A DNA stretch of 61,807 nucleotides, the filler included, from Basidiobolus ranarum (lineage: Eukaryota), in assembly GCA_040143965.1 (NCBI GenBank). It is 9 parts of 9 records of this genome, joined end to end, with 100 filler letters (N's around TTAATTAATTAA, not from the genome) between each part and the next. Parts side by side here need not be neighbours in the genome. Positions count along the whole stretch, not along the records: positions 20,687 to 27,465 come from JASJQH010008121.1; 8 more parts are not named here. One strand, written 5' to 3'. Shown here piece by piece: positions 6,799-55,048 of this stretch. Numbering within the stretch: the first letter of the stretch is position 1; every line of letters begins with the position of its first letter. The notes under the pieces were generated by a model. It saw only the letters and a list, made by a program, of their open reading frames with translations, ran no database searches and had not been told where the DNA came from. The position numbers and the translations under genes were made by a program.

Positions 6799-6898
6799 NN
6801 NNNNNNNNNNNNNNNNNNNNNNNNNNNNNNNNNNNNNNNNNNTTAATTAATTAANNNNNNNNNNNNNNNNNNNNNNNNNNNNNNNNNNNNNNNNNNNN
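6799..6898. other. Artificial contig spacer N44-TTAATTAATTAA-N44
   Basis: Identical 100-bp spacer occurs 8 times; the linker gives stops in all six frames. Confidence 0.98.
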
Positions 6899-7574: not shown

Positions 7575-8126
7575 TTTTGTTATGGAATACAAGCAAACAT
7601 ACAGATATTAGACATCACTTCATTAGAGAGACTATAGAGAATAAGTTTTATTGACTTCAGTTGTTGTTCTGCAGAAGACATGATTGCTGATTTATTAACC
7701 AAACCATTAGCTAGTGAGAAGTTTGACAAATTTAGACCTTTATTAGGAGTAGTATATATGATTATTTAGCTAAGGGAGATTGTTGAAATTAGAATTGCCT
7801 AAGCACCTACATAGTCATATGTAGCTTAGTACTTCGATATCTTAAAATTAAGTAAGATATTATCTCTTATTTTCAATTGGAATTTACTTGAAATATTTTT
7901 ACCAACTTTGAAGTTCTGAGATATATAGATTTTTCAAGCTTGTGCTAGATGCCCCACACTTTGTGCACATGTTTCTGAGACCTTCCTTAACACATTCTAC
8001 ATGTTTGCTTCTTTACATATGACAAAACTATAAATTTCAACTTTCTACTCAAAAAATTAATAAGTGATAACCACCAGTTTCTCCAATTCTCCAAACCACT
8101 TCCAACAGGCTCACAAATACTTTGAT
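7575..8126 (+). mobile_element. Ty1/copia family A 3' end: RNase H fragment, PPT and 3' LTR (7781 to about 8126)
   Basis: EDMIADLLTKPLASEKFDKFR, then purine tract AAGGGAGA and TGTTGAAATTAG LTR start. Confidence 0.82.
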
Positions 8127-8199
8127 AAATCCAAGAGCATATTCTCATTATGAATGGTAACAAGAGTCAGCTATTTGCCAAGTATCAGTGCCATTCAAA

Positions 8200-9435: not shown

Positions 9436-12400
9436 GCATCTATTTGATGTTTGATATGCTGAAATTTAGCTAAAATTGCTTAAATCAACCTAATTGAATT
9501 ATACTTTGCTACAGCAGCAAAAATTTCTGTATAGTCTATCTGAGTGTTTGGGAATAGCTTTTGGCTACTAGTCTAGCCTTGTTCTTTTCTATATTGCCAT
9601 CATATTTGCATTTAACTTTGAACACCCATTGGCAGCCATTTGATTTACTATCATTAGTTAAGTTGGTTAAAATCCAAGTTTGATTATTAATCAGAGCATG
9701 GTACTCATCAGCCATTGCAGATCTCTAAGATATTTGTGAAGGCCATTCAGGGTTTCTTTTACACTCTGGGGTGCATGTATTTGAGCTGTTCAGGCATAGA
9801 CCCAATTTTGAGACTCAATGATATAGTAATGAGGGCTATTTCTGATCTGATTTGATTTCCTGGTTTGGGATAAAGGTATTAAAACTTCTGGCATTGTATT
9901 TGGCACTTCAGTAGGCAAATTTTTGATTGAAGGGTTTACAAGAATGCCATTTTCTTCATTGCTTTGGTTTTAATCAATTTGAATGATTGGATCAGAAGAA
10001 AATTGATTTTAATCATCATCTGAGGTCATTTTAGAAGAATATTTTTCATTTTCATCAAACAAATCATCCCTGGACTTGATTAACTTGGAAATTTTGATAT
10101 CATAGAGTCTGTAGGACTTTGTTTGAGTACAATAACCTAGAAATGTGCATTTCTCACTTTTTGGATCACATTCAGACCAACCTATGGTCATAATTTGACA
10201 TGATCAATGCATCCAAAGATCCTCAAATGTTTTGCATCAGGTTTAGCTCCAAACTAAGCTTGATATGGTGTAGAGTTAGACATACTTCTAGTAAAGCACA
10301 TATTCTTCAGATATGTTGCTGTAGCAACAGATTCCACCCAAAAGTTATGAGATAAATTTTGCACATTTATCATAGATCTTGCCATTTCTATTATAGTCCT
10401 GTTAGCTCTTTCAGCAACTCCATTTTGTAGTGGTGAATAGGAGGGAATAGTTTCTTGCTTAATTCCATCAACTTTGCAATAGTGCTTTTATAGTGTTGAA
10501 GTTTATTCTCCACCTTTATCAGTATGTATTTTCTTGATTTTAGTTCCAGTTTTAGTCTCCACAAGAGTTTTACAATCTCTAAAGATAGAGAGAGCTTCTT
10601 CTTTTCTATCTATAAAGTAGACTCAAGTGTATCTTGTGTAATCATCAAAAGGTGTGATTAAATATCTTTTTCTGCCTTAAGAAAATTTTACATAGGTCCA
10701 TGCAAATCTGAATGAATTAGAACCAACTTTTGATAGATTTGATTAAACCAGAGCTCTTGAATGCTTTCCTGGCTTGTTTTCCACATATAAAACCCTCACA
10801 AATTTTCATTTTGGTTGGGGGGTTTATTTGTATACCAGAAATTAGGCAATTTTTGATCATTTTGCTCAAATAATTGAATCCAATATGGCCAAATCTCTTA
10901 TGCCATATTTCAATAGTTTCTTAATTGCAATAACTTATAACTACACATAAACCTCTTGTATTAAATGTTTGTTTGTAAAAGGTCTGATCTTTTTTGCCTG
11001 AAGCTAAATAATTCCCATTTTGATCAAAGATGGTGCATCCTAACCTATCTAAATTGAGTTTTAGCCCTTCTGAGGTGGCCTTGCATAGGGATATTGAATT
11101 CTTGGCAATATCTGGAACATGTAGTAAATCCTTAAAGTATATACTGTCTCTTCAGCAGCTCCAGTTAAATTGACTTGTATTGTTCCCATTCCAATAGCAT
11201 CTAATGAGTGGTCATTTCCTATAAAAACTTTTCCCATTGGGATTTCATCATAATCCACAAACCAATGTTTTTCATTTGTTAAATGTTGGAAAGCTCCAGA
11301 ATTTAATATACCACATCTGAGAGTCCTTGTTGATAGTCATAGATAGAGCAGTTATGAAAAAGTGATCTTCTGTTGTAACTACATTTCCAGATTCATTACA
11401 TTTTTCTTCTTTTGCAATTCATTTAAAGCAATCATTGCTTAAATGGCCAGTCCTTTCACAGTAATCACAAAATGTGTTACTTTTCTTTTTAAAGTGCTTT
11501 TGACCTTTATAGAAAGGCTTCCCATAGCCAATTAAAGCATTTACTTCATTCTTTTGGTTGGAATCTGATATGCATAAACGTTCATCTAGAAGTCTGCCAA
11601 ATGCATAATTTAAGGTCACATTTTCAGTTCTTAATTCTAAAGCCATTACCAGGCCCTGAAACTGTGTGGCAGGTTAATCAGGACTGTAACAATGATTTTG
11701 ATCAGTGGTATGCACTCCAATGCATTACATTTCATCCACTAAGTTAGTGACTCTATTTATCAGTGATATAATGTCTTGTCCTGGCTTCATCTTTAAGTTA
11801 AAGAATTGTCTTCTTAGTAGCATCTTGTTGGCTGCAGAATTTGTTTAGTTGGTGTCTTCCAAGGCTTTCCATACCTTCTTGGCTGTTTTAGCTCTTGATC
11901 ATAGAATTAGCAATTTGTCTTTAACATTAAGACAAATTGTGTTAAAGGCACTTTGTTCTTTTTTAACCTGGAGTAAAACTTTGGTTTCAGATAGTTTTTC
12001 ATGGTTTTCTTCTCCTATAGCAGTAACACAAAGTCCTTTTTCTTGCAGCAGTATTTTCATTTCAACTTTCCAAACTTGATAATTGGTTCCATCCAATTTT
12101 TCAGAAGAGGGAAAAGTTCCAAAATTTGAGAAGTAGACATTACAAGGAGTGCAAGCTTGGGGCTCATAATCTGATATATTATTTGGGAGCCTGTTGGTAG
12201 TGGTTTAAAGAAATAGAGGAATTGGTGGTTTTCTCTTATTGCTATATTGAGTAGAAAGTTGACATTTATATTTTGTCAGCATATAAACAAACAAACATGT
12301 AGAATGTGCTAAGGAGAGTCCTGGAAATATATGTGCAAAGTCTGGGGCCTCTAGCACAAGTTTGAAAAATCTATATATCTGAGAACTTCTAAGTTGGTAA

Positions 12401-12518
12401 AAATATTGTACATAAATTCTAACTGAGAATAATGGATAATGTCTTAGTGAATTATAAGATAACTAAGTACTAAGCTATATATGACTATACAGGTGTTTAG
12501 GCAATGCTAATTTCAACA
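9436..12518 (-). mobile_element. Decayed Ty1/copia family A element: 5' LTR 12172-12518, PBS, gag, protease, integrase, start of RT
   Basis: EKLDGTNYQVWK gag; CDYCERTGHLSNDC zinc knuckle; NSGAFQHLT protease-like; WHKRFGH; KCTFLGY; KARLVAK RT; many stops and frameshifts. Confidence 0.92.
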
Positions 12519-13574
12519 GAACTATATTGCTCACCATTGTTAGTACATACTTTCTTGATTTTAGTTCCAGTTTTAGTCACCACAAGTGTTTTGGAATCTC
12601 TACAGATAGAGAGATTTTTCTTTTCTTTGCATAGTGTAGACCCAAGTATATCATATATAATTGTGAATAAATGTGATCAAGTATCCTTTTCCACTCAGAG
12701 ATGCCTTTTACACTGGTCAACATAAATCTGAATGAATAGATCCAATTTTTTTACAGATTTGATTTGCACTTGAACAGTTGCCAAGCTTGTTTTCCATAAG
12801 TACCACCCTGACCAACTTCTATTTGGGTTGGCAGATTAACTTGAATTCCAGAAATTAAGCAATTTGTTCATTTTGCTCAAATAATCAAATCCAATATGGC
12901 CAAATTTCTTATGCTGTGATTGGATAGTTTCTTGATTGGAATAACTTATATTGACTCATCAATCTCTTGGATTATATGTAGGTTTGTATGAGTTTGGATC
13001 CTTTTCTTCCATGGCCAAGTAAATCCCATTTTGATAGGTGACAATGCATCCTGACTTATCAAAATTGAATTTTAGCCTTTCTGTGGTGGCTTTGCATACA
13101 GATATTAAATTCTTGGCAATATCTGGAACATGTAGTATATTCTTGAAAGTGTACACTTTCTCTTTAGAAGCACTAGTTAAGTTGACCTGAATTGTCGCTG
13201 CTCCAATGGCATCCAATATGTGCTCATCTTCCTTGAAAACCCTTCTAATTGGAATTTCTTCATAATCCACAAACCAATGTATTCATTTGTGAAATGTTAG
13301 GAGGCTCCAAAATTAATATAACTCATCTGAGAATCCTTGTTGGTGGTCATATATAGAGCAGATACAGACCAGTGATCTCTTGTTGTAAGCACATTTCCAG
13401 ATTCATTATGTTTTTCTTCTTGTGTATATCTTTCCAACCAATGTTTCTTATATGGCCAGATGTTTTATAGTATTCACAGAATGTGTTACCTTTCTTCTTA
13501 ATTTGTTCTTGACCCTTATAGGAAGGTTTCCCATAACCTATTAAAGCCTTTTCTTCATTCTTTTGGTTAGATCC
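12519..13574 (-). mobile_element. Second copia family A fragment (gag knuckle to integrase), interrupted by the preceding element
   Basis: Paralogous to 10540-11560 (DYEEIP...KNILHVPDIAKNLISV). Confidence 0.85.
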
Positions 13575-13693: not shown

Positions 13694-13793
13694 NNNNNNN
13701 NNNNNNNNNNNNNNNNNNNNNNNNNNNNNNNNNNNNNTTAATTAATTAANNNNNNNNNNNNNNNNNNNNNNNNNNNNNNNNNNNNNNNNNNNN
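13694..13793. other. Artificial contig spacer
   Basis: N44-TTAATTAATTAA-N44. Confidence 0.98.
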
Positions 13794-14178: not shown

Positions 14179-15714
14179 TCAAGTTCCACTCAGAAAGTCA
14201 ATATGTTCACTTGCCTAAGCTAAACAGTAACAAAGTTTAAGAGCTACCACAATACGCTATTACATTGATTGTGAAAATACTTGTAGATGCCCACTGTGCT
14301 TGGAAAATCAATCCTTTTCCTAGATCGCACTCAACTTCGTGTATACATATTATTAGTATAAGCTATGATTTGCCAACATCTCTTCACAAACGTGGATAAG
14401 ATAATCCACTGAGAAATATGTATAGAGAACTTGGGTAATAAGAAGTAAACTCAAGAGGCACTGGCTTTGCTGATTTATAGACAAGTAATACAATTCCATT
14501 GATAGTGATTTATGACTTCAATTCGCATCGAAGAAAATATGCAGCTTTAAGTCAAACGAGTTTGAAAATGGAAACACAAGTCATGCGACAGTACTCTATT
14601 ATAGTTATCTAAGCATCCTAATACTGTGGAATACTGAAAATTATGGGCCAAAGCTATACTATGCTCAAGGAATGTTTTACTTAACGTATATTCAATAGCT
14701 CAGATGCAATCCACTTATATGTTACTTTAAACATACCTAATCCTAGTTGAAGCATTTCTTTATTACGTTGTAGTTCATCAGGTTTCTTTTGCACAAGATT
14801 GAGAAATAAGCACACAATATGCATATCTGGGTATGATAAATTAAGCAAGTATTCCGATCAATTGGTTAATGGATTTGGATCTACCACCATCCAATCATTA
14901 AGCTCCAAATTAACTAGGGATAGGGTTATGATTCAGTGATTTTTTGCATGCGAAAGATAATTTATCTGCTTCCCATATTGTAGTGAATTAGTATATAGCC
15001 GACTGATATGAATGAGAACAACTTATCGTGCGGCACCGCTTATTTATACCGTGTTGCTCATAAGCCTCTCAGCACCATAGGCTTGTTACTACTTGTAGTT
15101 TAAAGAGCGTCAACTTAAGCGTAGACGAAAAGAATGTCTTAGCACCCTTTCTTCTTTCCATATTTCCACGGATTGAGGAGGGTCGGAGATTCATAGATTT
15201 CCTTTTTTTTCTAACTATCAAAATATCAAACAAAATTAACACTGCTCTAAGTTAGGCACAGAAACTGTCAGTAATTAGTAGTATTTATTTCATGCATACT
15301 GTATATATATTTATGGCAACATAGTAAATATACTGTGTAATGTGTTGAACCCTAAAATTAACATACGAGACTCCTGTCAATATCAATAGATATCATTTGC
15401 GTGTAACGTGATCAGTAGTTGCCGAGTGTGGGAACATTCTCGGAGCAAATTAGTCATATGAAAGCATTCCATGCTATGACTCTGTAATGCGTTGATTGAA
15501 GTTATTGTGATTATATTATATATTACAAATCATTGGTGACAAGTGATACGTGTTTATTTTCTCTCTAATATACAGTACTAGGAGAGTATGCAGATTGACA
15601 TAATCAAATGATTACATCCGATGAGGCAGAGATTAACAAGTGTATGATTTGATTTTCAATATCTTTTAGGAGTAAATCAAATATGATGCGGGGATATGAT
15701 AGAAGGGGGATTTT

Positions 15715-17337
15715 CTAATGCTTGAATTGTTCTTCAGTGGCACCAGCACCCATAGCTGCTGTGGAAGCTACACCACCAGAGACCAAAGTGATCAATTCGT
15801 CATAATAATAAGCGCCAGACCATTTTTGATGTTGTAGAGTGTCAACACCAAATTCACGTTCCTTACGTTGAACTCCCTCAACATATGCCAACATACCACG
15901 CTTAGCATAATCCCGAGCGAAAAGATCCACTCCAAGAGCATTACAATGGAAACCGGCGAGAGTAATGAACTGCCAGCAGAAACCGAGACGACCAAGATCC
16001 CAGATGAATGAGCGAATTTCTTGGTCAGTCATACCAGCCGCGTCCCAATTGAATGATGGGGAAAGGTTGTAGGCAAGCTTAGCCCATGGGTGCTTTCTGT
16101 GAACACCATCGGCGAATTCTTTAGCTTGAGCCATAATAGGACTCTTAGTTTCCATCCATAAAAGATCAGCATAAGGGGCAAATGCAGCAGCTCTGGCAAT
16201 ACCACACTTGTTACCTCCCAAGTATCTGTAGAAACCTTCGGCAGTACGTGGTTTCTCCCAGTCGAACTCAATTTGAATACCAAGAGATTTGGCGATGCGA
16301 CGAGCTTCAGTGATGGACACATCGCTAACCTCAGAATACCAAGATTTGATCAACTCCTCTTTACCAGGTTTATCAGAAATACGAATAGCTTCAGCGACAG
16401 CATCTGGGTAAGTCTTCAATTGAGCGTCAATCATCCATTGAGCTTCAACACGTCCAATTTCACTTGGGGACATACCGGCTTCACGTGATTCATCCAAAAC
16501 TTCGATGAGAGCACGGAGGTGCTTACTGCTAGTACCCAAAATAAAGGGATGATCACGCTTATCAATAGTACTGGTAATCAAAGTAGCAGCTTCGGCATCA
16601 GTACGAGCAACAATAAGGTTATCTACTCCCATGATATCGAATTGTACACGAGCAGCGATAAGGCGATTGATATGTTCGCAAATAGGAACCAAAACCTTGC
16701 CGGCCATGTGACCACACTTCTTGGTACCGGGTGCTTGATCTTCCATATGAATACCAGCAGCACCACGTTCAACGAACATCTTAGCCAACTTCATAACGGC
16801 AGTGATACCACCATGACCGGTATCAGCATCGGCGATAATAGGTCTCAAGTAATCATGATTTTCGGAAGCACTGCGTACCTTGGGATCCAATTTGAATCTT
16901 TGTTCACGCTGTTTACGATCGTGGAACTGTTGAGCAAGGAACAATTGTTCGACCTTGTTGGGTACGGTGTCCATAGGATAATCAGCCAAATCTGGTCCAG
17001 GTTCATTGGATGAGGATGCAGTGGAGGAACTTTGCCATCCAGAAACGTAGATGGTTTCCAAGTACTTTGACATCAAAGTTACTTGAACTGGATCTAAAGA
17101 TCCGAAAGTGTGGGAGGTGGTACCATTAACGAAACGGTTGGAAACGATCTGCCAAAGTTTCTTGGCCATCACATTAGAAGGATATTCGATATGAAGGGAT
17201 CCGCGCTTAGCAACAATGGACTCGGCGGAGTAGGGACGAGTGACACGGGCGAAACGGTCTGATTGCCACCATTGACGTACTTTGGCACATTCCTCTTCGA
17301 AGAGGGCTTGTTCATCGAAATTTTTGCTGTTACCCAT
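15715..17337 (-). CDS. ICL1: Isocitrate lyase (glyoxylate cycle), intronless
   Basis: 540 aa; [23 protein letters not shown] catalytic motif, [16 protein letters not shown]. Confidence 0.95.
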
Positions 17338-20586: not shown

Positions 20587-20686
20587 NNNNNNNNNNNNNN
20601 NNNNNNNNNNNNNNNNNNNNNNNNNNNNNNTTAATTAATTAANNNNNNNNNNNNNNNNNNNNNNNNNNNNNNNNNNNNNNNNNNNN
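20587..20686. other. Artificial contig spacer
   Basis: N44-TTAATTAATTAA-N44. Confidence 0.98.
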
Positions 20687-21410: not shown

Positions 21411-23459
21411 CTACTAGAGACAGTTACATGCTAATGTGTTACTAGACAGGACTTAACTGGCTCACAGGAAGTACTGACTGGTAGGTATTATATTTCTGAT
21501 ACTTATTCATTTATCCCTAGCTTTGTTTATATATGTTTCAGTGTGAGTCAGGGATGCTAACTTAAATATTCAGTATTAAAGCTTCATCCCTCTACAAATC
21601 TCCTGCCAAGCTGAATTTTTTGTACTGGAAGCTTATGAATATTGATGGGAGATATATTCTTCACTCTATTTTTAAAGGGTAAAGACACACTATGGTATGT
21701 CAATAGCTTGAAGACTTTCTGAGAAAAGATTATTTTTGATAATAGAATTATCAAGAATCCTCAATACTACAAGGGTAGATAAAACTCTGGTGGTTTCTTT
21801 AACTTGAAGTCAGAAGAAATGATATAGTTCTTTTGATATTGGCAAAGACTTTGATTAAGAGTTAGATATATTCTATGGCTGTATAAGTGAAGATAACTAT
21901 GAAAGAATCTGAACTGCAATCTACAATAGTCAAGCCTAGTTGGGTTGCAATAGGAGTCTTGATTATCCTACCATGATGCAGGGTAGAATATCTAGTTAAA
22001 GAAAGAATAAAGAAGATGATGTAGTTTTGGATGGTGCTAAGGCTAGAAGCTTTTTCACTAGGGGGAAGGGTTGCTTATACAAAGAAATAGCTTGAAATCA
22101 ATACTATGAATTGCTGGCTGAGAATAAATCCTGTGTGTGGGTGGCTTAGCATCAAAGTGCCAATAAGATCACTAAGATCAGCTGTAGCCTTGAAACTTTG
22201 GACAGATTAGCATCAAGTACTGTGCCAGTACTGTGCAAAGTTTGAAGACAGTCCATCAGCTGGTTCAAAAGGTAGCACTAGTTTGATGAACATTTTGAGG
22301 TCCTGAATTCCTGTGTTCTGAATGTATGCTAGTGCTGATTTTTGTGTAGGCAATTTTGAAATGGTTATAGCTCCACCAATGGTTGATCAAATCTTATGAT
22401 TCTTGCATGGTTGCAAGCTCTATTTCAGGAGTTTCTGATTGCAGTTAGAGTTACTATATTAAGCCAAGTATTGATGGAACTATAAGCAATTAAATATTCT
22501 TGTTCTTTTTCTTGATTGGTAAAAATATTAAAAGATAGGAATAGAAATATTCCTCCTAATCATTATGTGCAAGATATTGTTCAAATCTTTCCAACACTTC
22601 AACATAAGTAACTTTTTATATATTTGGATAAACCACTTCTGGTGCATCCTTGTTTAAGACCCTGCTGGTTGAGTTTATAGTTGTTTTTGATTGAATATAC
22701 TCCATGTATCCGATTATTCTCAAAGGATGTTGAAGCCATTATACTTTTATTTAGATGCCAGTATATTATACAACAGAAAGCTGGACATTGCATTGTCATT
22801 TATCAGTCCTTTAACATATTTATAGGCTTGATTCTATTTCACCAAGACCCAAGAGACAAACCCATATTACATCATATCTCAGAGTTCTTCAACTTTTCGG
22901 AGAATTCCCACTACTGTTTCAGAACTCAGGTCATACTTAGGAATAGTTTCCAATTGGAGAAGATTGGTTAAGGGATTAGCCTTAATCTTAACCCCATTGC
23001 CTCAACCACTGAAGAAGGAAAGTGTCATTACTTGAAACAGTTAGTGTGAAGCTGCTTTCCAATGCTTTTAAGTTGAACTAGCAAAGTTACCTATCATGAA
23101 GATTCCAGAATATAACTACCTATTCTTTCTCACTACAGATGTCTCAGACTATGCCATAGGAGGAGTCTTAAGCAAGATTCATGATGATATATAAAACCCA
23201 ACTGTTTTTGAGTTAAAGAAGCAGAATGTTGCTGAACAAAACTATGCAGTTCATAAAATGGAGATGCTTGCCATTTTCCATTGCCTCAATGTCTGGCAAT
23301 GCTATTCAGAAGGGGGCAAGACTACTGTGAAGACTGACCATGCCTCTCTGAAATAGGTTAGTAATCAAAAAGTGCTATCAGAAGAATGACATGATGGGTT
23401 GAATACGTGCCACAGTTTGACCTGGATCTCCTCTATGCCTATAGAGAAGTCCATGTTAT

Positions 23460-23740
23460 TGTTCAAATTATTTAGGTAGAAATATTGATCTGGCCAGGAA
23501 CTGAACCTGAGACCTCCTTCACTCTAGCAAGGTGCTTTAACCACTGAGCTACCAGTCCTTGTAAGCTATACCTGTATTGCTTGCAAACCTTAACCTAGTC
23601 TGTTAGTGTATGGTACTTTGGCATTTCAGCTACACAAGCAACTGATTGGTCTTAGACTTTGTGTTCAGATGCAGTCACCATACTCCATATTTTCTCTTTG
23701 GGAATTACTGCTTGTACCACAAGTCACCAGACTTTCAACA
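23460..23740. mobile_element. 281-bp solo-LTR-like insertion carrying a tRNA-like gene
   Basis: TGTTCAAA...TTTCAACA termini; perfect TSD GTTAT (23455-23459, 23741-23745); removal restores REVHVIAAALF, which matches the gypsy NVVADALS motif. Confidence 0.85.
23486..23558 (-). pseudogene. tRNA-like cloverleaf (AGA at the anticodon position, short variable loop), probably pseudo/TE-borne
   Basis: GGACTGG-TA-GCTC-AGTGGTTA-AAGC-A-CCTTG-CTAGAGT-GAAGG-AGGTC-TCAGG-TTCAGTT-CCTGG-CCAGATC-A, 73 nt; A box TAGCTCAGTGG; B-box-like GGTTCAGTTCC. Confidence 0.8.
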
Positions 23741-26089
23741 GTTATAGCAGCTGCTTTGTTTCAAGTTTGTAAGCACAATGAATTCACTATCATTGAAGAA
23801 TCTGATTGGCCTCCAGTAATACCTTTATTTTTGGCGAACCTAATATTTTCAGAACCAGTTGGGGCAGAAGTACTAAAATTAATTTGTTAAAAAGCAGAGA
23901 AATCTGTTGTCCAAGAAGAAGTTATCTATGTTATTGTTGATAACTAGCCAATATTTTACTCTCCCTATTCCCCCCTTTGGAACTTAGCTCCTAAGCTACA
24001 TAGTGACTATGGACATCTTGGAATATAAGAAACACTCAACCTATTGGGGACCAGAGCCTAGTGGCCTAAGACAAAGAGTGACTTAGAGGAACCAGTCAAA
24101 ACTTGCTCTAGTTAATTGTCAATTAAATCAGAGTTGATCTCAGAGATATACAGAAATATTCCATCTGGAGCTAGTAAGATCAACTGAAATATCAGGCATT
24201 GATTTCATTGGAAGACTACCCAGTACTAGAAAAAGCAACCAATGAATTCTTGTTGCCAGCAACCATGCTACCAAGTGGCCAGTTGCCAAAGCCATACCAA
24301 TTGTCAGCAAAGAAGAAGCTGCAAGCTTCATGTACTATGAATTTTGATGAAGTTTGGTTGCTCTGTTAAGATTCTGTCAGACAGAGGAGCTAACATTATG
24401 GCAAAAACACTTTGAGACTTTTTCAAATTTTGAAATATCAAGCATTTGAAGACCTCTGCCTATCTTCCAAAAACCAATAGACTTACTAAGGGATTTAATG
24501 GACTTTTTGGCAAGATATCATCCAAGTGTGCCAATGAAGCAATACTCAGGTTGGATAACAACATTGATAAAGCCTAATGTGCATGGTATATCCAAGCACA
24601 TAGTATAACTCAGAAGTCCCCTTTCTAATTAGTCTCTGGGTGTCACCCAAATATTCCTGGATACAAATTGCAATCAAAACTTACTCAGTTTCTGGAAGAT
24701 TAATTTAGCCAAACAACAGCAATGGAGAAGCATATTCAAGAGAGAAATTTTGCAAAAGCAAGAGTTGCAGCTAGTGCCTCAGAAATGAAAACTTGCTTTG
24801 ACAATACTATAGACTCACAACTAATAACTGATGGAAGCTTTGTGCTGTTAAGAAATACACCAACCTAAAGTTTCAATCTTGCTGGACAGGACCTTTCAAA
24901 CTAATCACAGAATGCCTATTACAGATATATCAGCTAATGGATAAGCAAAGAGTCACCAAAGCAGACTTAGTGTGTTAAAAAGGACCAAAGTTAGCATTCA
25001 CAATAATAATAACCTCTTGGATTTTGGCAAATTTCCATAATGAATTTGGCCAAAATATCCATGACTTGCATTCAACTTATGTCCAGCCATAAATAGATAG
25101 CATAGCTCAGCAGAGACAACATCAAGACCCTCAACTTCCAAAGTGCCTACTTTGCCAACCATTAAATACCCCTCTATAGTAAACTTGGACCAAATCATTA
25201 TAACCAGGCAATCTTGGGCAGAACACCATAGTGGTTTGTATGCAATCTTAAATAAAAGCTGCAAAGTTGCTATACAGGGCATATTAAGCAATAACTCAAT
25301 ATTACCACAATTAATGCAGCATTCTGAAGCAGCTGGTCAATAGTTAGAAAGTCACACAATTATGATAGAAAACTTTCAGAATGGTATACTTAAGCTACAG
25401 CAATAAGCTGCTCTCTCCATCCATTCTAATATGGGATTTCAATCTATCAGACATCATACCTATGAATGTCACTGTGATAATCTAGTAAAGCAGAATAAGT
25501 GTGAGATCACTAAGCCAACAAAACAACCCAAAGTTGCTTAATCAGTTGTAAGGGGTAATCTCAAAGGAAAACTAGCAAACCAAAGGACTTTGAATGTCCA
25601 AGCCACTATTGCTTGCTCTGATGATGAATGGATTAACATTTTGGAAACTGTGTAGAATCTTGCCCATAATTATCTTAATTTGAGCCAATCAGGAAAAAAC
25701 CAGAGACTAGTTGTTGCTATAATGGTTCTTGACTTATTTCATGTGGCTTATCCTGGGTCTTTGCAAGCAACTGGCAATTAAGCTGTTATAGCCCTTTTCA
25801 TGAAACATCTCCAAAAAGTTAACAAATATTAATCTGGGAGCATAAGAAAAGCAGCTAAAGTTGTACTCAAGGAGCTGGAGGTTAGTAAACCCTAGGGAAA
25901 AGCAACAGAGCCAGTGAGTGTGGGCACTTTTGTCCCAAATACCAAATTCTTCAAACCATTACAGAGATCTGTATTTCCAGAGTCAGAAATACCAGCAGAC
26001 CTAAGTATACCGGGATGAGAATTGCCAAATATGGATTTTATTCAACATGTGGCACCTCTCAACAAGCTAAAACTCCACCAAATAATGCT

Positions 26090-27465: not shown

Positions 27466-27565
27466 NNNNNNNNNNNNNNNNNNNNNNNNNNNNNNNNNNN
27501 NNNNNNNNNTTAATTAATTAANNNNNNNNNNNNNNNNNNNNNNNNNNNNNNNNNNNNNNNNNNNN
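27466..27565. other. Artificial contig spacer
   Basis: N44-TTAATTAATTAA-N44. Confidence 0.98.
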
Positions 27566-28601: not shown

Positions 28602-31600
28602 TGTTGAAACTAAGAAAATAGCAACTCATTGCTTAGTAGTTAATTTATTCATATCTGATTATTTAACACTCTATTCTGCCATTCAAAGACATGCATTAAT
28701 TACTCTAAGCAATGAAAATATTAATTGAATCACTTGTACTAATTCTCACCATTTTGTCAAAACTTCTCCAAATTGCCAAAAATTATCACCCACACTTAGC
28801 AGGCCTGTTAGCTGTTATCTAAGCATGTCCAATGGTCCTTGTTCATAGCAAACTATAAATAGGACATATTTAATTTAATAAACCTTAAGTGTCTAATTAA
28901 CAAATCCTAATCTTGTCCAATACACTTCCAAATCTGCTGAACACTTTTATCAGGTTATGAGACACAAGCTAGCTGTTGATGGAATGTCAACCAATACTTT
29001 TACACTTGTTTTTGCTTTCACAGAGAAGTTGGATGGTGAAGACTCTCATCTTCAGACATTCAAGATGCAAATGGTGCTCAAAGACAAGAAACTTTTGGGA
29101 ATTGTTACAGGAGAAGAAATAGAGCCAAAGCAACCACCAGAAGCTACTGTTGCCCTTAACATGAAGCAGAGGAAATCATTCTCTACACTCTGTCTGCTGC
29201 TCAGAGACTCTCTACTTAGACACATACAAACAGCCAAAGTGTCCAAATGCTTGGAAAAAACTTGAGGTACTATAAGAGCCCAAAAGGCTGGCCAATAGGC
29301 TCTAGCTTGTGTAAATATTATTTTCAATTCAGATTAGTTCTGATGCATCTATTCTTAATTATATGAACTGGACAAAAGCCATGGCAGAAGAGCTCTGATC
29401 CATTGATGCACTTCTAAATGAAGATGACTTTATCATGACACTACTTGGGAGTCTGCCAGACAAGCTTGGGAACTGCGTAAATACCCTAGAATCAAGATTG
29501 GAACATTAACAATGGAATATGTTTGTGCTAGGCTTTTGAATTTGGAGTTAAGGAGACCTAATTCTCTGCAAAATAATGGAGAACAGGCATTATTTGGAGC
29601 TGTAGAATATCCAGCAGCCTTCAATAATGGTGCCCCTAAGAGAAAATCAATCAATCAAATGTATTTCACAAAACTAGGCCATTTAATGGAAAATTACAAA
29701 AAAGGTTTTTTGCTGAAAAGCTAAAATTGGAGCAAGCCAATCAAATAAGCACTGATAGGGCTCATCTGTTTGTGTCTGCTTTATCAGTAACTACTAAAAG
29801 AGACTCAGAAATGTGGTATGTTAATTCAGGAGCGTCCCAACATATATTGAACAAGAAAGATTGGTTTTGCAGCTTAACACTAATCCAATTAGGTAAAATC
29901 TACTGAGTGATGACTATGCACTGGATGCAGTTGGTCAGGGGAAAGTAGTGCTTAATTTAGACCAAAACTCAGCTACACCATCTGCAAAGTTGCACAATGT
30001 ACTCTACATACAAAATATAGCCAATAATCTACTCAAGGTAAGCCAAGTAACTACTCAAGAACTAAATTTTGTATTCAGCAAGGCTGGATTCATTATTATT
30101 GAGCAGATTAAAACTAAATCAGCTACTGGAATCAAAACTCAATACTTGTACAAGCTAGAAATTCACATGTTGCATTCTGAGCACACAAACAGGACCAATA
30201 CCGTGAAATAAGCTGTCAAACATGGCATAGAAGATAAAGCCACATTGGGGAACAAAAACTGGCGCAAATGAATCAAATTAGCTTGTTTCATGCATAAAAA
30301 TTGAAACTAACACTCAATTGGATCTGTGTGAACGTTGCATATATTAATAATATTGCAGATAGCCGTTTTCAAGCGTTGGAGAGATCCAATCTTTTAGAAG
30401 CTTGCCCTATGTGGACCCATGAAAGTGTTGCAATAGGTGAGAAAAGTTACTTTCTGACCATTGTTGATGACAAAACAAGATATAATTGGGTATTCTTTTT
30501 GAAATGAGAATATGAGCCTCAGCTACATTCAAGCACTGCAAAGCAATGGTAGAGAGAGAATCAGCAAAAAAAATGTGGGTACTAAGGAGTGATCATATGG
30601 AGAAAAATACTGCCTGGAAGAATTTGCAAGTTTTGATTCCAAACTTGGAATTAAGCAACAAACTACTGTACCTGAAACTACACAGCATAATGAAGTTGCA
30701 AAATGTGCTAATAGGACCATGGTGGAGATGACTAAGTCACTGTTACATGATCCAAAGTTATATTACCAATATTGGGCTGAATCTGTCCACACTGCAGTCT
30801 ATATCAAAAACTGATGCCCAAAAAGATTAATACAAAATTTTACTCCATTTGAAGCCCTATATGGATCAAAACCCAGTGCGGATCATTTCAGGATCTTTGA
30901 TTGCACTGGTAAAATTAGCATCGTCTAAAAACCTATGTAGTCATATATAGCCTAGTACTCAGTTATCTTATCATTCACTAAGATATTATCAATTAATCTA
31001 AATTGGAATTCACTTAGAATATTTTTACCAACTTAGAAGTTCTCTGATATATAGATTTTTCAGACTTGTGCTAGAAGCCCCAAACTTTGCACACATGTTC
31101 CTGGGACCTTCCTTAATACATTCTACATGTTAGTTTGTTTATTTCTTAACAAAACTATAAATGTCAACTTTCCACTCAATAAATCAACAAGTGAAAAGTA
31201 TCAATTCATCTAATTCTGCAAACCACTTCCAACAGGCTCCAAAATACTTTACCATGCACAGCATATTGCCTAATTCCAACTCAAAAGTGCTCTAACTTGG
31301 AACCTAAAGCAGAAAAAGCATATCACTTTGTTACTGTGACGGATCTAAGGTCTACAGACTGTTTGATACCCAAAATCAGTATCTAATTAAGTAAAAAGAT
31401 GTGATATTTGATCCAAGAGCAAATTTTTTAACCTCAAATCACAGTAATTCATCCAGAAAGCATAATCAGCACTACTTATGAGGTGTCAGATAGAGTTTCA
31501 GCATTATCTCAGCTCTATTCAACCAAAATTCCAGTCCCAATTAAATTCAAGAATGACTTAAAACCCAAAAGATCATCCTGGTGGAATACTTCCAATGATG

Positions 31601-33478
31601 ATGTATATTCTTATGCAGCATTCTGTGCCCAGCCACCAACTCTAGATCAAGCTCTGGAGTGTCCAGAATTGAAATTTTGGGAAAATGCAATGTCATATCA
31701 GTTTTCTTCACTTCAGCTCAATGAAATGTGAGTTTTAAATCCTCTACCATCAGGGAGAAAATTGATAGGTTGCAAATGTGAATACATAGCCAAAAACCAA
31801 GCTGATGCAACCATAAAAAGGTACAAAGCAAGATCAGTAGTAAAAGGTTATTCCCGGACTCCAGGAGTTGATTTAAATGAAATGTTTGCTCCAGTACCTA
31901 GGTTTAACTACATTAGATCAATCCTGGCTCTCTGAGCCATCCATAATCTTGATTTCCATCATATGGATGTACAAACAGCCTTGCTAAATGAATATCTAGC
32001 AGATGAAATTTATATGAAGTAAACAGCTGGATCTGTTGACCCAATACATCCTACTAAGGTCTGTAAACTGCAACAATTGCTATATGGACTCAAACAAGCA
32101 CCCAGGGCATGGTACAACAAGATATATATCTATTTATAATCACTGGAATTTCACAAATGCAAAGCAGAAAATTGTATTTATATTAGTACAACAAGAAATA
32201 TGATCCTTATCTTGGCACTATATGAGGATGACCTGATCATAGCCACAAATGATCTAGAAGCACTTGATTAGATGAAAAGCAGCTTATCAAACCAACATCA
32301 GATGACCAATATGGGTTGATTAAGTTATTTTCTTGGAATACAAATCAAGAGAGATAAACCCAATCAGAAAATTGTGCCGCATCAGTCTAGATATATCCTA
32401 GACAACCTAGAATGCTTCAACATGGAGAATAGCAAGCCTGTGCCACCCATGGATCCAAATGTGAAAGTAATCCAAATTTCAACCTATTTTGCTCCAAATT
32501 ACCCATATCAAAGCCAGGGGTTCCCTTATTGATCCATGGTGGGTAGTTCAATATAACAAATGGTTAGAACATGTCAAGACATTGTGGTGGCTGTGGGAAA
32601 TATCCACCAATAGCTTAAAAATCTAGGATCTGAGCACAAAACTGCAGTAAAATGAATATTCAGGTATTAGAGAAACTGTAGATGCAGTTCTGGATTATTC
32701 TGCCGCTGCTGATGCATAACCTTTGAAGACTACATTGAAGCAGACTGGGGAAGAGACCCTGAAGATACAAGATCAACCACTGGGTACACTTTTCTTTATG
32801 GTAATGATGCCATAACTTGGAATAGTAAGCAGCAACCAACCATAACACTTTCCAATACAGAAGCAGACTATACGGCTGCATCTGCCACTACACATAAAGC
32901 TATGTGGTTAAGGAAGTTATCTACAGACTTAGGATACATGCAAAAATGTGCTATTACTGTATTTGAAGAAAATCAAAGTTATATTTCATTAGTTGTTAAC
33001 TCTACATTTCCTGTTAGAATAAAACAGATATATATTAGGCATCATTTTGTTAGAGAAGCAACAAAGAAAGGTATAAGAGAAGCAATAGAGAATGATATAA
33101 CTAAAATTGTCTATTGCACTACTGAAGAAATGAGTGCTGACATCTTAACCAAACCTTGAGCTAAATCACAATTTGAATTATCTGGATATAATTTATGTTT
33201 GAGAGAAATAAAAAACAAGTAGTAGAGTAGGAATGATGAAATTAGATAAATAGCAACTCACTATTTAGTAGTTTGTTTATTCATGTTCTGATTATTTAGT
33301 ACTCAATTCTGCCATTCAAAAACATGTGTGTATTGCTCTACTTGATGGAAGTATCAATTTGATCACTTTTACCAATTTTTAATATTTTCTCAAGACTTAT
33401 TCAACCATTAACTGGTGTCTAATTCAGAAATCCAAATCTTGTCCAAAACACTTCCTAGTCCCATAATTACTTTTAATA
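28602..33478 (+). mobile_element. Full-length decayed Ty1/copia family B element (LTRs 28602-28952 and 33234-33478)
   Basis: TSD AAGAG on both sides; PBS GGTTATGAG; gag, WYVNSGASQH protease, integrase, LYGLKQAPRAWY and LYEDDLII RT, ADILTKP RNase H. Confidence 0.93.
30907..31254 (+). mobile_element. Solo family A LTR nested in the family B element
   Basis: TGGTAAAA...TTTACCA termini; perfect TSD TGCAC; removal restores FRIFDCTAYCLIP. Confidence 0.92.
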
Positions 33479-34340: not shown

Positions 34341-34440
34341 NNNNNNNNNNNNNNNNNNNNNNNNNNNNNNNNNNNNNNNNNNNNTTAATTAATTAANNNN
34401 NNNNNNNNNNNNNNNNNNNNNNNNNNNNNNNNNNNNNNNN
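34341..34440. other. Artificial contig spacer
   Basis: N44-TTAATTAATTAA-N44. Confidence 0.98.
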
Positions 34441-35251
34441 CACCGGCACCGGGGCCTGCTCCATATCCTGGCCGATCACCGGCGCCATTTCCTCCAGGTC
34501 CTGAGCCACCTCCATTTCCGCCAGGGCCGGAGCCACCTCCATTTCCAGTGTCATAAGAGTTTGGTCCTCCGTTACCTCCAGATCCGGATCCTGATCCTTC
34601 ACCGCCACCATTACCACCGGCACCGGGGCCAGCTCCATATCCTGGGCCTTCACCACCGCCATTTCCTCCAGGTCCTGAGCCACCTCCGTTACCACCAGCA
34701 CCATTTCCGGTGTCGTAAGCACTGGGTCCTCCATTATCGCCAGCACCGGATCCTGGTCCTTCGCCTCCACCGTTACCACCGACACTAGGGCCAGCTCCAT
34801 ATCCTGGACCTTCGCCTCCACCATTACCACCGGCACCAGGGCCAGCTCCATATCCTGGACCTTCACCTCCACCATTTCCACCTGCGCCAGGGCCAGCGCC
34901 TCCTCCATTGCCGCCCGATCCTGGCCCCTCACCTCCACCATTGGCACTTTCACATTCTTCTTCGTCATTATCACCACCATGATCACCGCCATTGTCACCT
35001 GATCCAGATCCAGGGCCAGTACCACCACTACCACCACCATTTCCTGGTCCTCCATATCCCCCATTACCTCCTGAACCAGATCCAGGGCCTTCACCACCAC
35101 CATTTCCTAAATTTCCCAAAATATCTGTTATATCGTATGTAGGTTTTGCTACTGTATGATCTTCACCGTTGTGGCGGCGATGTAAAGCGGCACCATTGAT
35201 AGCGGAAATTCCGGAAAGAACAAATAAAAGTTTAGGTGCGGTAATTTTCAT
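34441..35251 (-). CDS. Secreted glycine-rich repeat protein, 3'-partial
   Basis: MKITAPKLLFVLSGISAINGAALHRRH signal peptide plus dibasic site, then GPGAGGNGGGEGPGYGA repeats; TATA-like tataaaa upstream near 35350. Confidence 0.85.
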
Positions 35252-36462
35252 TTTGGTATTAAATAAAAAGTGTCTAAGATTGCAAGTAAAAAAGAGATAG
35301 AAAAGATACTTGATTTCACAATTCAAATATTCAGTCGGAGGGGAAGCTTTTATAGCACGAAAGAGAAGAACTTCGTTTGTTAATGATGTTGAACTAATTA
35401 TACCCCTTTCGTAGAATTCAAAATCAAATATTGTTCCTGTTGAGATTTATGCAGGGGAGGTTTCCTTCAAAATATACACAATGATCTCCTCGATTTCAGA
35501 ACAACTTGATACAACATCCAAATCCACCTGCCCCTAGATTCTGTATGGGTTTCAGGAAGAAAGTCAATGAGATATACGAATATTGACCAAGAAACTGTGC
35601 AACCCATCTTCATTGTATATGGATGATTTGATTTGACGGTAGTGGTAGTGATAATTTGCCTTAAAGGATCCTATTTCCAATGAGATTACAGTAACCATTT
35701 CATGACTAGTTTTGTAAATAGGATAGTAGACATATGCAAGCGATCTTGGTCTAAGGGCTAAGGGATAGAATACAACTACCAAAGTGGCTGCATTACTTTC
35801 ACATTCTAACTCCTTACTTGCTGGGTGTTACAATGTGTTTCAATGGATTCCATTCGTCATCCACCAATATACTCCATCTAAGTAAACAAGCTGATGCTTG
35901 GTATTGGTTCCCTGTATGCGTTGCTTCTAGTCAATGCTGGCTTTTTAACGCTTTAGGTGTTTGTGAGAAGTAATGCAGTGAAGGGCTCTGCTCCAAAACA
36001 TGTAAGGAAGGGGATTGTTTACACGAATATGCCAACGCATGTTTCTCATCAATCCCTCAGCCATGCCACCGCCAGATCCAGATCAATACCTTGGGTCACG
36101 GTCATAGTCATGGTCACAGTCAGGGTCATGCCATTGATAAGGAATTCATTAAATATTTCTAGATCAATATTACAGGTCACAAATGGAAATACTCGGAATC
36201 ATATATTTCTCTGCATCTAAAATTGGTATTTACTTAGATGTACTCATAATACTGATTTTGATGATGAAGCCTCATTGGACAGCTTATACGTCAACGGTGG
36301 CTGCTTTCAAAGATATATCTTCAACGATTATCAAAAGTAATATAGAATCCAGTCCAAGCCTTGAATATGATTTCTCAATTCATGTGTATGATGTTCTGAT
36401 TTTCGGATGCAGTTTAATGGTGAAAAAATGATGCGTTGGAAGTGAAATAGTATAAACCAACA

Positions 36463-38875: not shown

Positions 38876-40700
38876 TGTTAAAGTATTTTGGGAGCTTGTT
38901 GGAAGTGGCTTGCATAACTGGAGAAATTGGTGGTTTTCACTCATTGATCCAAAGTTGAAATTTACAGTTTTGTCACAATAACAACAAACTAACATGTAAG
39001 ATGTGTTAAGGAAGATCCCGGCAGTACATGTGCAAAGTTTGAGGCTTCTAGCACAGGTTTGAAAAAATTTACATATCTGAGAACTTCTAAGTTGGTGTCA
39101 ATATTACAACTAAATCCCAATGAAGAACAATGGGTGATATCTTAGTGAAATATAGGATAACTAAATGCTAAGCTATATATGACTATATGGATGCTTAGCT
39201 AATGATAATTTCAACTAAGTAGTCACATAAACTAATCCTAAAGAAGGTCTAAATTTCTCAAGTTTCTGCCTAGCTAATGGTTTGGTTAATATATTAACAA
39301 TCATGTTTTCAGTAGAACAATGAGTCAAGTTGCTATGCTTATTCTCTATGGCCTTACTTATCAAATGAAGTCCAATATCTATATGGTTGCTTCCAGTATA
39401 AGATATGGGATTTCTAGCCAATATAATTCAACTTTGATTATCCTGAAATAGCATAGTTGATAAGTTTTGCAAAAAGCTCAAATCTGTTAGCTGTCTTTTT
39501 ATGCATATTACTTCTTTTGTTACTTCACAAGCATCCATGTATTGTGCTTATGATGTTGAAAATGCTACCATAGGTTGTTTCTTTGTATTTCAAGAAATGA
39601 CTCCATTACAGCAAAGTAATATTGATCCTATTATAGATCTTCTGTCTTCAATATGCTAAAGTATTTGGGAGCCTGTTGCAAGTTGTTTGGAGAATTAGAA
39701 AAATTGGTGGTTCTCACTTATTGACATATTGAGTAGAAAGTAGATACTTATAGTTTGTCAAGATATAAGCAAACTAATGTGTAAAATATGTTAAGGAAGG
39801 TCCCAGGAACATATGTACAAAGTTTGGGGCTTCTAGCATAAGTGTAAAAAATCTATATATCTGAGAACCTCAGAGTTCATAAAAATTCTATCTAAGTTCC
39901 AATTCTGAGAGCTTCTAAGTTGGCATCAATATTGCAAGTAAATTTTTCATCAGAATAATGGGTAATATCTTAGTGAAATATTAGATAACTAAGTACTAAG
40001 GTATATATGACTGTATTGGTGTTTAGGTAATGCTAACTTCAACATAATATCCCTTTCCCAATATGCATCTGATTATTCCTTCTAAGCAAAATTTGATACA
40101 GATTATGTGAATCTTAAGCACCCATGCATATTTTCATTGCATAACTTGAAAATCTGCTTAACTGATGTGATTTGATTCAATCCACAATTTTAATGATATG
40201 GGCACAATATTACAACAGAATGTGAAACATCTTGCCATGTTCCAACAACAACATATATCAGTGTACCAATTATAGTTTGTCAAGGATTAATACAGCTGTT
40301 ATTCAAATCCAAGAACATCTGAATTGAGCCATTTCTAATCAAGTTCAGCTTTAGCTTCATTGGTATAGATACTGGATCTGATTATTACATGTTAAGGTTC
40401 TTAGCTAATTGAGGATGTAATTAGGCTGGTCCAAAGCTATTGTTTTGTAGCTCTATCTATCTTTAGTTAGATTCCATGACAGTAAGTCAGTTTAACAGGA
40501 TCAGTCTTTTTGAATGTGGCAGATAAGCTTGATTAGGTTCTATCCATAATATTCAAGTGATTGCCTATTACAAGTAAATCATATACATAAAAGGCTAATA
40601 AAACTGGGCGTGTCTAATCCAGCTGGAAGTAGATACTATAGTTAGCATTAATCTTTTGAAATTTGAGTATCTATCAAAAAGGTTTTAACTTGTTTTCCTG
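38876..40700 (-). mobile_element. Copia family A 3' remnant (RT, RNase H, 3' LTR 38876-39215) with a nested solo LTR at 39654-40044
   Basis: HIDIGLHLI...ENMIVNILTKPLAR; nested LTR has near-TSD CAATA/TAATA and splits the RNase H start. Confidence 0.85.
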
Positions 40701-41211: not shown

Positions 41212-41311
41212 NNNNNNNNNNNNNNNNNNNNNNNNNNNNNNNNNNNNNNNNNNNNTTAATTAATTAANNNNNNNNNNNNNNNNNNNNNNNNNNNNNNNNN
41301 NNNNNNNNNNN
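41212..41311. other. Artificial contig spacer
   Basis: N44-TTAATTAATTAA-N44. Confidence 0.98.
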
Positions 41312-45818: not shown

Positions 45819-46129
45819 TGTTGAGGTATTTTGGGAGTTTGTTGGAAGTGGTTTTTAGAGCTAGAACAATTGGTGGTGTTCACTTATTGATTTATTGAGT
45901 AGAAAGTTGACATTTATAGTTTTGTCAAGAGGTAAACAAACAAACGTATAGAATGTGTTAAGGATGGTCCCAGGAACATGTGTGCAAGGTTTGGACTAGG
46001 ACAAGTTCTCAAAATGTTCCAAGTAAATTCCTCTTGAGAATAGTGAGTGATATCCTAGTTCAATATGGAATAACTAAATACTAAGCTATATATGACCATA
46101 TAGATGTTTAGGCTATGCTAATTTCACCA
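45819..46129 (-). mobile_element. Solo family A LTR
   Basis: Reverse-complement match to other copies; TG..CA ends; no clear TSD. Confidence 0.8.
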
Positions 46130-48081: not shown

Positions 48082-48181
48082 NNNNNNNNNNNNNNNNNNN
48101 NNNNNNNNNNNNNNNNNNNNNNNNNTTAATTAATTAANNNNNNNNNNNNNNNNNNNNNNNNNNNNNNNNNNNNNNNNNNNN
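48082..48181. other. Artificial contig spacer
   Basis: N44-TTAATTAATTAA-N44. Confidence 0.98.
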
Positions 48182-54948: not shown

Positions 54949-55048
54949 NNNNNNNNNNNNNNNNNNNNNNNNNNNNNNNNNNNNNNNNNNNNTTAATTAA
55001 TTAANNNNNNNNNNNNNNNNNNNNNNNNNNNNNNNNNNNNNNNNNNNN
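54949..55048. other. Artificial contig spacer
   Basis: N44-TTAATTAATTAA-N44. Confidence 0.98.

Follow-up and report, generated by a model that had tools for sequence, protein, structure and literature searches.

Pol III modules inside LTRs

[quoted passage not shown] Helenus belongs to the TRIMp3 elements, as TRIMs with a Pol III promoter are called in the literature (PMC10886601). In that paper, the fungal hosts of Helenus are Pucciniales and Agaricomycetes, with Agaricus and Coprinopsis listed in Table 1 and Amylostereum added in the text. The fungal members are flanked by 5-bp duplications, as are those of plants, and are commonly found as solo LTRs, and the reported LTR lengths run from 120 to 323 bp (PMC10886601). 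Box A (TRGCY, YGG) and box B (GGTTC) of the tRNA-like sequence are conserved (PMC10886601, section 3.5), and predictions of "tRNA-Ser-AGA" fall within Helenus families. This tRNA-like sequence shows no complementarity to the primer-binding site (PBS), and an anticodon-loop-type primer site has been reported for the Copia partners of fungal Helenus (PMC10886601). Kojima's proposal is that Helenus originated through insertion of a SINE2 into the LTR of a TRIM. The same source points out that "not a few" LTRs in Repbase hold tRNA-like parts without belonging to TRIMs, and that only some of the LTRs of this kind are those of TRIMs (PMC10886601).

The Cassandra TRIMs of plants follow the same design, with a Pol III-type small-RNA gene module placed in the LTR of a short non-autonomous element (PMC10886601). 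In Cassandra the module is derived from 5S rRNA and transcription from the 5S promoter has been validated, whereas the unit described below carries a tRNA-derived module, sits in a fungal host and is known from sequence alone. A SINE begins with the tRNA head and ends in a tail, its mobility depends on non-LTR elements, and its duplications vary in length. A SINE2 and the unit have in common a tRNA-derived module with A and B boxes, but the unit differs in its 182 nt before the tRNA head, its TG..CA ends and its 5-bp duplication.

An LTR-like insertion in a decayed gypsy pol gene

The window, by which we mean the whole stretch of 61,807 nucleotides of Basidiobolus ranarum DNA that was analysed (GCA_040143965.1), contains an LTR-like unit inserted in a degenerate Ty3/gypsy pol gene (Table 1). 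An isocitrate lyase from the window shows 77-92% identity to Basidiobolus ranarum proteins. Read directly, the unit starts with TGTTCAAA and ends with TTTCAACA, and the TSD on its two sides is perfect. The unit therefore has, as the preliminary description had claimed, a length of 281 bp, TG..CA ends, a 7/8 terminal inverted repeat and a 5-bp GTTAT duplication, and these are the marks by which an LTR is recognized (TG..CA, a short inverted repeat and a duplication of 4-6 bp). A miniature element with two LTRs was considered for the 281 bp and rejected: an internal direct repeat of more than 12 nt is absent from them, so they form a single unit.

Table 1. Features of the insert and its host gene, in window coordinates
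Feature	Position	Strand	Remarks
Left TSD copy, GTTAT	23455..23459	.	Direct read; codes V-I of the host pol frame
LTR-like unit, 281 bp	23460..23740	.	TG..CA ends, 7/8 terminal inverted repeat; one copy within the window
Right TSD copy, GTTAT	23741..23745	.	Direct read
Segment of 182 nt, upstream of the tRNA-like module in the tRNA sense	23559..23740	-	Outer end reads TGTTGAAA
Pseudo-tRNA, 73 nt	23486..23558	-	AGA at the anticodon position, short variable loop; ARAGORN, Rfam RF00005
Segment of 26 nt, from the 3' end of the tRNA-like module to the end of the unit	23460..23485	-	Without a run of at least 4 T
Decayed Ty3/gypsy pol, host of the insert	23072..24109	+	RNase H upstream of the insert, integrase zinc finger downstream; many stops and frameshifts

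The host gene can be followed on both sides of the insert in its decayed frame, with stops read as X. Upstream, Pfam RT_RNaseH is found at 23072-23353 (E 1.1e-18), where PF17917 and PF17919 both match, and downstream, Integrase_H2C2 (PF17921) is found at about 23993-24109 (E 1.6e-7). The gap between the RNase H and zinc-finger matches is 639 nt, which becomes 353 nt (about 118 codons) once the insert and one TSD copy are subtracted. The insertion site is a short way C-terminal to the RNase H domain, some 100 nt beyond where the Pfam match ends. Here the frame-2 peptide ..YAYREVHV stops at 23457, with an I codon spanning the junction, and when the 281 bp and one copy of GTTAT are taken out the frame resumes past the insert as IAAALFQ. 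The closure is exact, and the boundaries of the insert are set independently by the host gene. We take the motif restored in this way for the ..ADALSR-type sequence that is conserved between RNase H and integrase. Since a search for intact gypsy relatives that could be aligned across the empty site gave three candidates and none of significance, the empty-site argument rests on the flanking Pfam domains and the in-frame reading. Within the window there is no second copy of the host gypsy to provide a paralogous empty site.

The ends and the duplication have to be weighed with some care. A scan of the window for a 5-bp duplication, TG..CA and an inverted repeat of at least 7/8, at lengths of 100-1000, returned three instances, compared with 0-5 (mean 2.95) in 20 first-order Markov simulations. 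By itself, the signature is at chance level for a window-wide scan. It gains its weight from the pol frame, which fixes the boundaries, and LTR-type ends at boundaries fixed in this manner are improbable by chance on a rough estimate from base frequencies. The case rests on the signature together with the break in the pol frame, the tRNA-like insert and the end octamer TGTTGAAA that is common to other LTRs.

The tRNA-like module

The module is called by ARAGORN as a tRNA-Ser(aga) of 73 nt and scores 41.6 bits with Rfam RF00005 (the gathering score is 29; E 2e-5 with the window searched as a whole). It is the only tRNA-like match in the 61.8 kb. Entirely contained in the unit, it has 26 nt of the unit on one side and 182 nt on the other. 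The intact A box reads TAGCTCAGTGG and the B box, which is close to the consensus, reads GGTTCAGTTCC; in tRNA-sense coordinates of the 281-bp unit they are positioned at 190 and 234. Both box motifs of the Helenus type, TAGCT..TGG and GGTTC, are present in the module. The D loop and anticodon arm may be of a Thr(AGU)-like type, the type that Kojima describes in fungal Helenus.

Three of the module's four stems are damaged, with an A.A mismatch in the acceptor stem, a G.G mismatch in the anticodon stem and a D stem of only 3 bp, and its free-energy fold is not a cloverleaf and does not surpass that of shuffled sequence (z +1.09, with 173 of 200 shuffles folding at least as well). The promoter boxes have been kept while the tRNA structure decayed. 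Cytosolic tRNA-Ser has a long variable arm, and the short variable region, the two mismatches, the reduced D stem and the poor fold do not fit a functional tRNA-Ser gene. The complete cloverleaf of the preliminary description stands as to its 73 nt, its minus strand, its start 26 nt into the insert and its A and B boxes, but falls short in its stems and its folding. The accompanying remark that AGA is combined with a short variable loop, unlike a normal tRNA-Ser, can be seen in the ARAGORN drawing. A match of Rfam Plastid-ycf2 to the same bases on the plus strand (23.4 bits against a gathering score of 65.7) was rejected as an antisense echo of the tRNA-like sequence.

Of the two segments that flank the module, the longer would be the U3 if the LTR reads in the tRNA-sense direction. 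In the shorter one, the tRNA-sense strand is missing a T4 run, as are 37% of shuffles, and an argument from the Pol III terminator was dropped as uninformative for that reason.

Other LTRs of the window and the search for further copies

Autonomous Copia and gypsy elements are both present in the window, and it is through its termini that the unit can be compared with them. In the tRNA-sense orientation the end octamer of the unit is TGTTGAAA, which is seen 12 times in the window where 6.5 would be expected; at least 6 of these occurrences are at the ends of LTR-like repeats. It is the 5' octamer of Copia LTRs, both of a 5' LTR that starts at 28602 and of a 3' LTR that starts at 58403 just after a purine-rich stretch. 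The octamer is also found at three ends of an abundant repeat family of about 350 bp, a copy of which (30907-31254, with the end TGGTAAAA) has a perfect 5-bp duplication. Directly after its LTR, the Copia element at 28602 (28602-33455) carries the PBS-like GGTTATGAG. The Copia LTRs (28602-28952 and 58403-58751) and the solo-LTR-like family of about 350 bp resemble the unit in this octamer, in an ..A(A/T)CA end and in a comparable size of a few hundred bp each. Beyond the termini they are unlike it, and no tRNA-like sequence is found in any of them. When the end of the unit is set against the other LTR ends, both orientations match about equally, and for this reason the module could be antisense to the LTR.

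Within the window the unit has no further copy, and no paired LTR, PBS or polypurine tract (PPT) belonging to it. A full TRIM has two LTRs on either side of a short non-coding internal region with a PBS and a PPT, and is smaller than about 1-1.3 kb in all. Outside the window, metagenome contigs, which probably contain little or no host DNA, had no match to a 24-nt junction pattern or to a 20-nt anticodon-arm pattern, and viral contigs, where host DNA is probably just as scarce, had none to a 23-nt pattern. When the 49-aa frame encoded by 23594-23740 was compared with proteins of similar length, no candidate emerged. A search of 1.84 billion representatives with this frame gave two matches, both tandem-repeat ORFs aligned through a short recurring word, which were judged spurious and rejected as relatives. 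These blank searches are weak evidence because the collections probably hold little or no DNA of the host.

Origin of the insert

We think it probable that the insert is a solo LTR from an element with a complete tRNA-derived module in its LTRs, most likely a short non-autonomous one of the Helenus type (TRIMp3). With Helenus it has in common a tRNA-like module inside an LTR-type unit, boxes A and B kept in an apparently non-functional tRNA, a 5-bp duplication, the solo-LTR state and a length that falls inside 120-323 bp. The combination of AGA with a short variable loop resembles the "tRNA-Ser-AGA" predictions of Helenus, and the nearby Copia with an anticodon-loop-type PBS fits the Copia partners proposed there. 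Helenus differs in its hosts, which among fungi are reported to be only Pucciniales and a few Agaricomycetes, as opposed to Basidiobolus here. The locus also consists of one solo copy without internal region, PBS or PPT, and the likeness drawn here is one of architecture. A solo LTR with an embedded tRNA, offered in the preliminary description as a counterpart of Cassandra, agrees with the ends, the TSD, the size, the boxes and a placement that is incompatible with a SINE. The further statement that the arrangement was undescribed in fungi is wrong, given the Helenus families of Pucciniales and Agaricomycetes (Kojima 2024, PMC10886601). The suggestion that the tRNA was captured as a source of primer is spoken against, for the Helenus group, by the missing complementarity to the primer-binding site noted in the same paper.

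In a full copy of such an element, the A and B boxes in the module of the 5' LTR would recruit TFIIIC, TFIIIB and RNA polymerase III. Transcription would begin 183 nt into the LTR, where the tRNA-like head lies. The transcript would take in the final 26 nt of the LTR, then the primer-binding site, a short internal region and the polypurine tract, and would continue into the 3' LTR. Reverse transcriptase and integrase would be supplied in trans by an autonomous element, probably of the Copia type, and integration would produce the 5-bp duplication. [quoted passage not shown]

Alternatively, the solo LTR may come from a Copia or gypsy family that is autonomous and coding, is transcribed by Pol II and is not a TRIM. 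The LTR of this family would hold by chance a tRNA-derived stretch left, for instance, when a SINE or tRNA inserted into it long ago. The tRNA-like part would then be a passenger or a TFIIIC-binding site. The ends, the duplication and the size are equally expected from such a family, autonomous Copia and gypsy elements occur in the window, and the module may be antisense, both orientations being alike. By analogy with the non-TRIM LTRs of Repbase that hold tRNA-like parts, as mentioned by Kojima (PMC10886601), the parent element could have been autonomous. We nevertheless consider this account rather unlikely. No autonomous element of the window has an LTR similar to the 281-bp unit, and a full-length module whose A box is intact and whose B box is near consensus is more in keeping with a selected promoter than with a passive relic. 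A single event outside any family, an insertion or rearrangement by which a tRNA pseudogene and its flanking sequence entered the gypsy relic, would agree with the lack of further copies in the window and in the metagenome, viral-contig and translated-frame searches. This appears decidedly improbable, as the perfect TSD and the integrase-type ends at pol-defined boundaries form the footprint of a transposition, and the outside collections are unlikely to contain host DNA.

The two remaining explanations place the insert outside LTR elements altogether. A tRNA-derived SINE, or another non-LTR retroposed copy, would account for tRNA-derived sequence with Pol III boxes, and would require the TSD and the TG..CA ends to be coincidental, as the chance frequency of the bare signature across the window would allow. 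The arrangement of the unit makes this very improbable: there are 182 nt before the tRNA head and only 26 nt after it, with no A-rich or simple-repeat tail. A SINE origin is disfavoured because Pol III transcription of a SINE begins at the tRNA head, and the 182 nt ahead of it could not enter the transcript or be carried along by the element. In addition, LTR-type ends at boundaries fixed by the pol frame are unlikely to arise by accident on the rough estimate given above, and the end octamer is that of other LTRs in the window. A small, MITE-like non-autonomous DNA transposon with 8-bp inverted repeats and a 5-bp duplication, which picked up a tRNA-like fragment, could also account for the 7/8 terminal inverted repeat and the perfect duplication. 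To this we give very little credence, as the inverted repeat amounts to just 8 bp and the same octamer ends Copia LTRs with PBS and PPT in the window. A 5-bp duplication with TG..CA ends is typical of LTR integrases, not of the common cut-and-paste superfamilies.

Implications for fungal genomes

With Helenus described, the design is already in print, and the locus probably represents a new host lineage rather than a new kind of element. The possible novelty may be the host itself, as Basidiobolus is an early-diverging fungus. A more specific proposal, which we put forward tentatively and would not rate as the likelier outcome, is that the insert is a relic of a Helenus-like, Pol III-promoted TRIM lineage outside Dikarya, born independently of the rust and mushroom lineages and moved by the window's own Copia elements with anticodon-loop-type primer sites. 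In a bolder variant, the module may lie antisense in the U3 and act as a TFIIIC-bound boundary rather than as the promoter of the element.

Taken by itself, a single decayed solo copy amounts to an ordinary transposon relic. A family, if it exists, would mean that LTR elements with tRNA promoters reach beyond Basidiomycota into an early-diverging lineage of fungi, and would support repeated, independent births of this design. Odd "Ser-AGA" tRNA predictions with short variable loops may then be LTR modules, and if the family is large, tRNA gene predictions would be inflated in these genomes, as Helenus inflates them in Puccinia.

Insertion into a decayed gypsy element

A 281-bp unit, best read as a solo LTR, interrupts a decayed Ty3/gypsy pol in the window. 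The structure proposed for 23455-23745 in the preliminary description (281 bp, TG..CA ends, a 7/8 inverted repeat, and GTTAT on both sides) is confirmed, the ends following from the first bases, TGTTCAAA, and the last, TTTCAACA. Since Pfam matches to RNase H and integrase lie on either side, the host is a decayed Ty3/gypsy pol with the unit between its domains. The frame-2 peptide ..YAYREVHV reaches 23457, an isoleucine codon straddling the junction, and with the unit and one GTTAT removed it runs in frame into IAAALFQ.., while the distance between the two Pfam matches falls from 639 nt to 353 nt (~118 codons). We take the rejoined YAYREVHV-IAAALFQ to be a conserved stretch C-terminal to RNase H in gypsy pol. 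The suggested insertion into gypsy pol therefore holds, with RNase H upstream, integrase downstream, and a frame that closes once the unit is taken out. No further copy of the host gypsy was found within the window, and of 3 candidate intact relatives for an alignment across the site none was significant. Repeats at 20691-21183/26094-26573 and, inverted, at 20987-21407/27046-27465 flank the decayed gypsy with 79-84% identity and might be its LTRs, but their similarity begins directly at an N block and runs beyond a TGTTGAAATTAG motif, which blurs their limits.

Features of the window
Feature	Position	Strand	Details
RT_RNaseH (Pfam)	23072-23353		E 1.1e-18; frame translated with X for stops
Left GTTAT, 5-bp target-site duplication	23455-23459		read in sequence
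281-bp unit	23460-23740		TG..CA ends, 7/8 terminal inverted repeat
tRNA-like module	23486-23558	-	73 nt, AGA at anticodon position (ARAGORN)
Right GTTAT, 5-bp target-site duplication	23741-23745		read in sequence
Integrase zinc-binding domain (Pfam)	~23993-24109		E 1.6e-7; frame translated with X for stops
Copia-type retrotransposon	28602 to ~33455	+	copia-type gag PF14223 and Pol beta-barrel domain
Copia 5' LTR	28602-28952		351 bp; starts TGTTGAAA, ends TTATCA
PBS-like GGTTATGAG	28953-28961		immediately after Copia 5' LTR
Copia 3' LTR, truncated	from 33234		element at 28602
Second Copia copy	~55646-58751		~78% identical to first; ~25.2 kb downstream along window
3' LTR of second Copia copy	58403-58751		purine-rich stretch just before
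~350-bp repeat pieces	7781-8128, 12172-12519, 30907-31254, 38887-39217, 39650-40047, 45830-46131, 55646-55893, and further ones
Isocitrate lyase gene	15718-17334	-	77-92% identical to Basidiobolus ranarum proteins; other named matches lower
N blocks	6799-6898, 13694-13793, 20587-20686, 27466-27565, 34341-34440, 41212-41311, 48082-48181, 54949-55048

The tRNA-like module

The unit carries a tRNA-like module that lies 26 nt from one of its ends and 182 nt from the other. It is the only tRNA that ARAGORN reports in the whole window, and it scores 41.6 bits against the Rfam tRNA model (gathering score 29; E 2e-5 for the whole window), with no tRNA-like match elsewhere in the window at E up to 10. 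The tRNA previously claimed here, with 73 nt on the minus strand, AGA, a short variable region, and both an A box and a B box, is thus recovered. The variable region is short despite the serine reading of AGA. Of the two promoter boxes, A (TAGCTCAGTGG) is intact and B (GGTTCAGTTCC) lies close to consensus; the acceptor stem has an A.A mismatch, the anticodon stem a G.G mismatch, and the D stem 3 bp. Promoter elements have therefore been preserved and tRNA function lost. The minimum free-energy structure is not a cloverleaf, and its stability does not exceed that of shuffles (z +1.09), 173 of 200 of which were at least as stable as the real sequence. The module is a relic of a tRNA.

Nature of the unit

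Terminal features offer little on their own. Defined as a 5-bp duplication, TG..CA ends, an inverted repeat of at least 7/8, and a length of 100-1000 bp, the bare signature was matched 3 times in the window, where 20 Markov simulations gave a mean of 2.95, and so it is no proof by itself; another of the three matches, 30907-31254, belongs to an abundant LTR-like family of ~350 bp. The evidential weight is in the coincidence of the host-frame boundaries, the window's sole tRNA-like sequence inside them, and an end octamer common to other LTRs. A SINE would also contain a tRNA-derived region, but it is ruled out because a Pol III transcript cannot hold 182 nt from 5' of its own start, and the unit has no tail. 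A miniature element with two LTRs is likewise rejected, as the unit lacks a long internal repeat. The unit is probably an LTR with a tRNA-derived module. Within the window, blastn found no extra copies of it. A search with one translated frame returned no relatives from two protein collections, and three DNA pattern scans of metagenome and viral contigs gave 0 matches, all of these being collections unlikely to contain DNA of this organism. The solo LTR with embedded tRNA of the preliminary description is a plausible structure.

Other LTRs of the window

The Copia element at 28602 has a PBS-like GGTTATGAG that presumably reflects priming of the anticodon-loop type. Pieces of the ~350-bp LTR-like family number at least 12 across the 62 kb (71-88% identity), with ends TGTTGAAATTAG.. 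and ..ACTTTAACA in what is likely the true orientation, and the 12-mer TGTTGAAATTAG is common to a repeat end and the start of the Copia LTR at 58403. The copy at 30907-31254 sits inside the Copia element with a perfect 5-bp duplication; paired copies with a PBS and a polypurine tract were not seen in the window. Read in tRNA-sense orientation, the 281-bp unit opens with the octamer TGTTGAAA. The window contains 12 occurrences of this octamer where 6.5 would be expected, and at least 6 of them lie at ends of LTR-like repeats. Comparison within the window found no likeness to the Copia LTRs or the ~350-bp repeat past the termini, and comparing ends with other LTRs does not separate the unit's two strand orientations. 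At 18046, an 11-nt TGTTGAAAGTC matches the tRNA-distal end exactly with no similarity after it, and is probably a coincidence or another LTR's terminus.

Comparison with Helenus

[quoted passage not shown] In fungi they have 5-bp duplications, many copies are solo LTRs, and boxes A and B are conserved, with isotype disagreement in most tRNA predictions; many predicted tRNA-Thr-AGT and tRNA-Ser-AGA 'genes' of rust genomes are Helenus LTRs (PMC10886601). The likely mobilisers are Copia elements primed by a tRNA anticodon loop, mostly initiator Met, and complementarity between the tRNA-like part of the LTR and the PBS is absent (PMC10886601). The 281-bp unit, known here from one solo copy, displays all the Helenus features that a lone solo LTR can. 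It would, on balance, be a Helenus-type element. The view that such an arrangement is undescribed in fungi falls, because fungal Helenus has been in print since 2024 (PMC10886601). No report of Helenus or TRIMp3 (TRIMs with a Pol III promoter) from the Basidiobolus lineage was found in the literature outside Kojima's supplementary family and genome lists, and the only novelty left is possibly the host lineage, a Basidiobolus-like early-diverging fungus judging by the isocitrate lyase of the window.

Other features

An Rfam match to the H/ACA snoRNA snR35 family (15025-15200, plus strand; 43.8 bits against a gathering score of 35, E 2.7e-6) adjoins the isocitrate lyase gene. The N runs (16 of 44 N, paired 12 bases apart and spaced ~6.87 kb) look like masking or scaffolding, not biology. 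An open frame of 353 codons at 34385-35446 (minus strand), which enters an N block, is highly repetitive and Gly/Asn/Pro-rich, with a hydrophobic N-terminal stretch preceding GGNGGG.GPG repeats.
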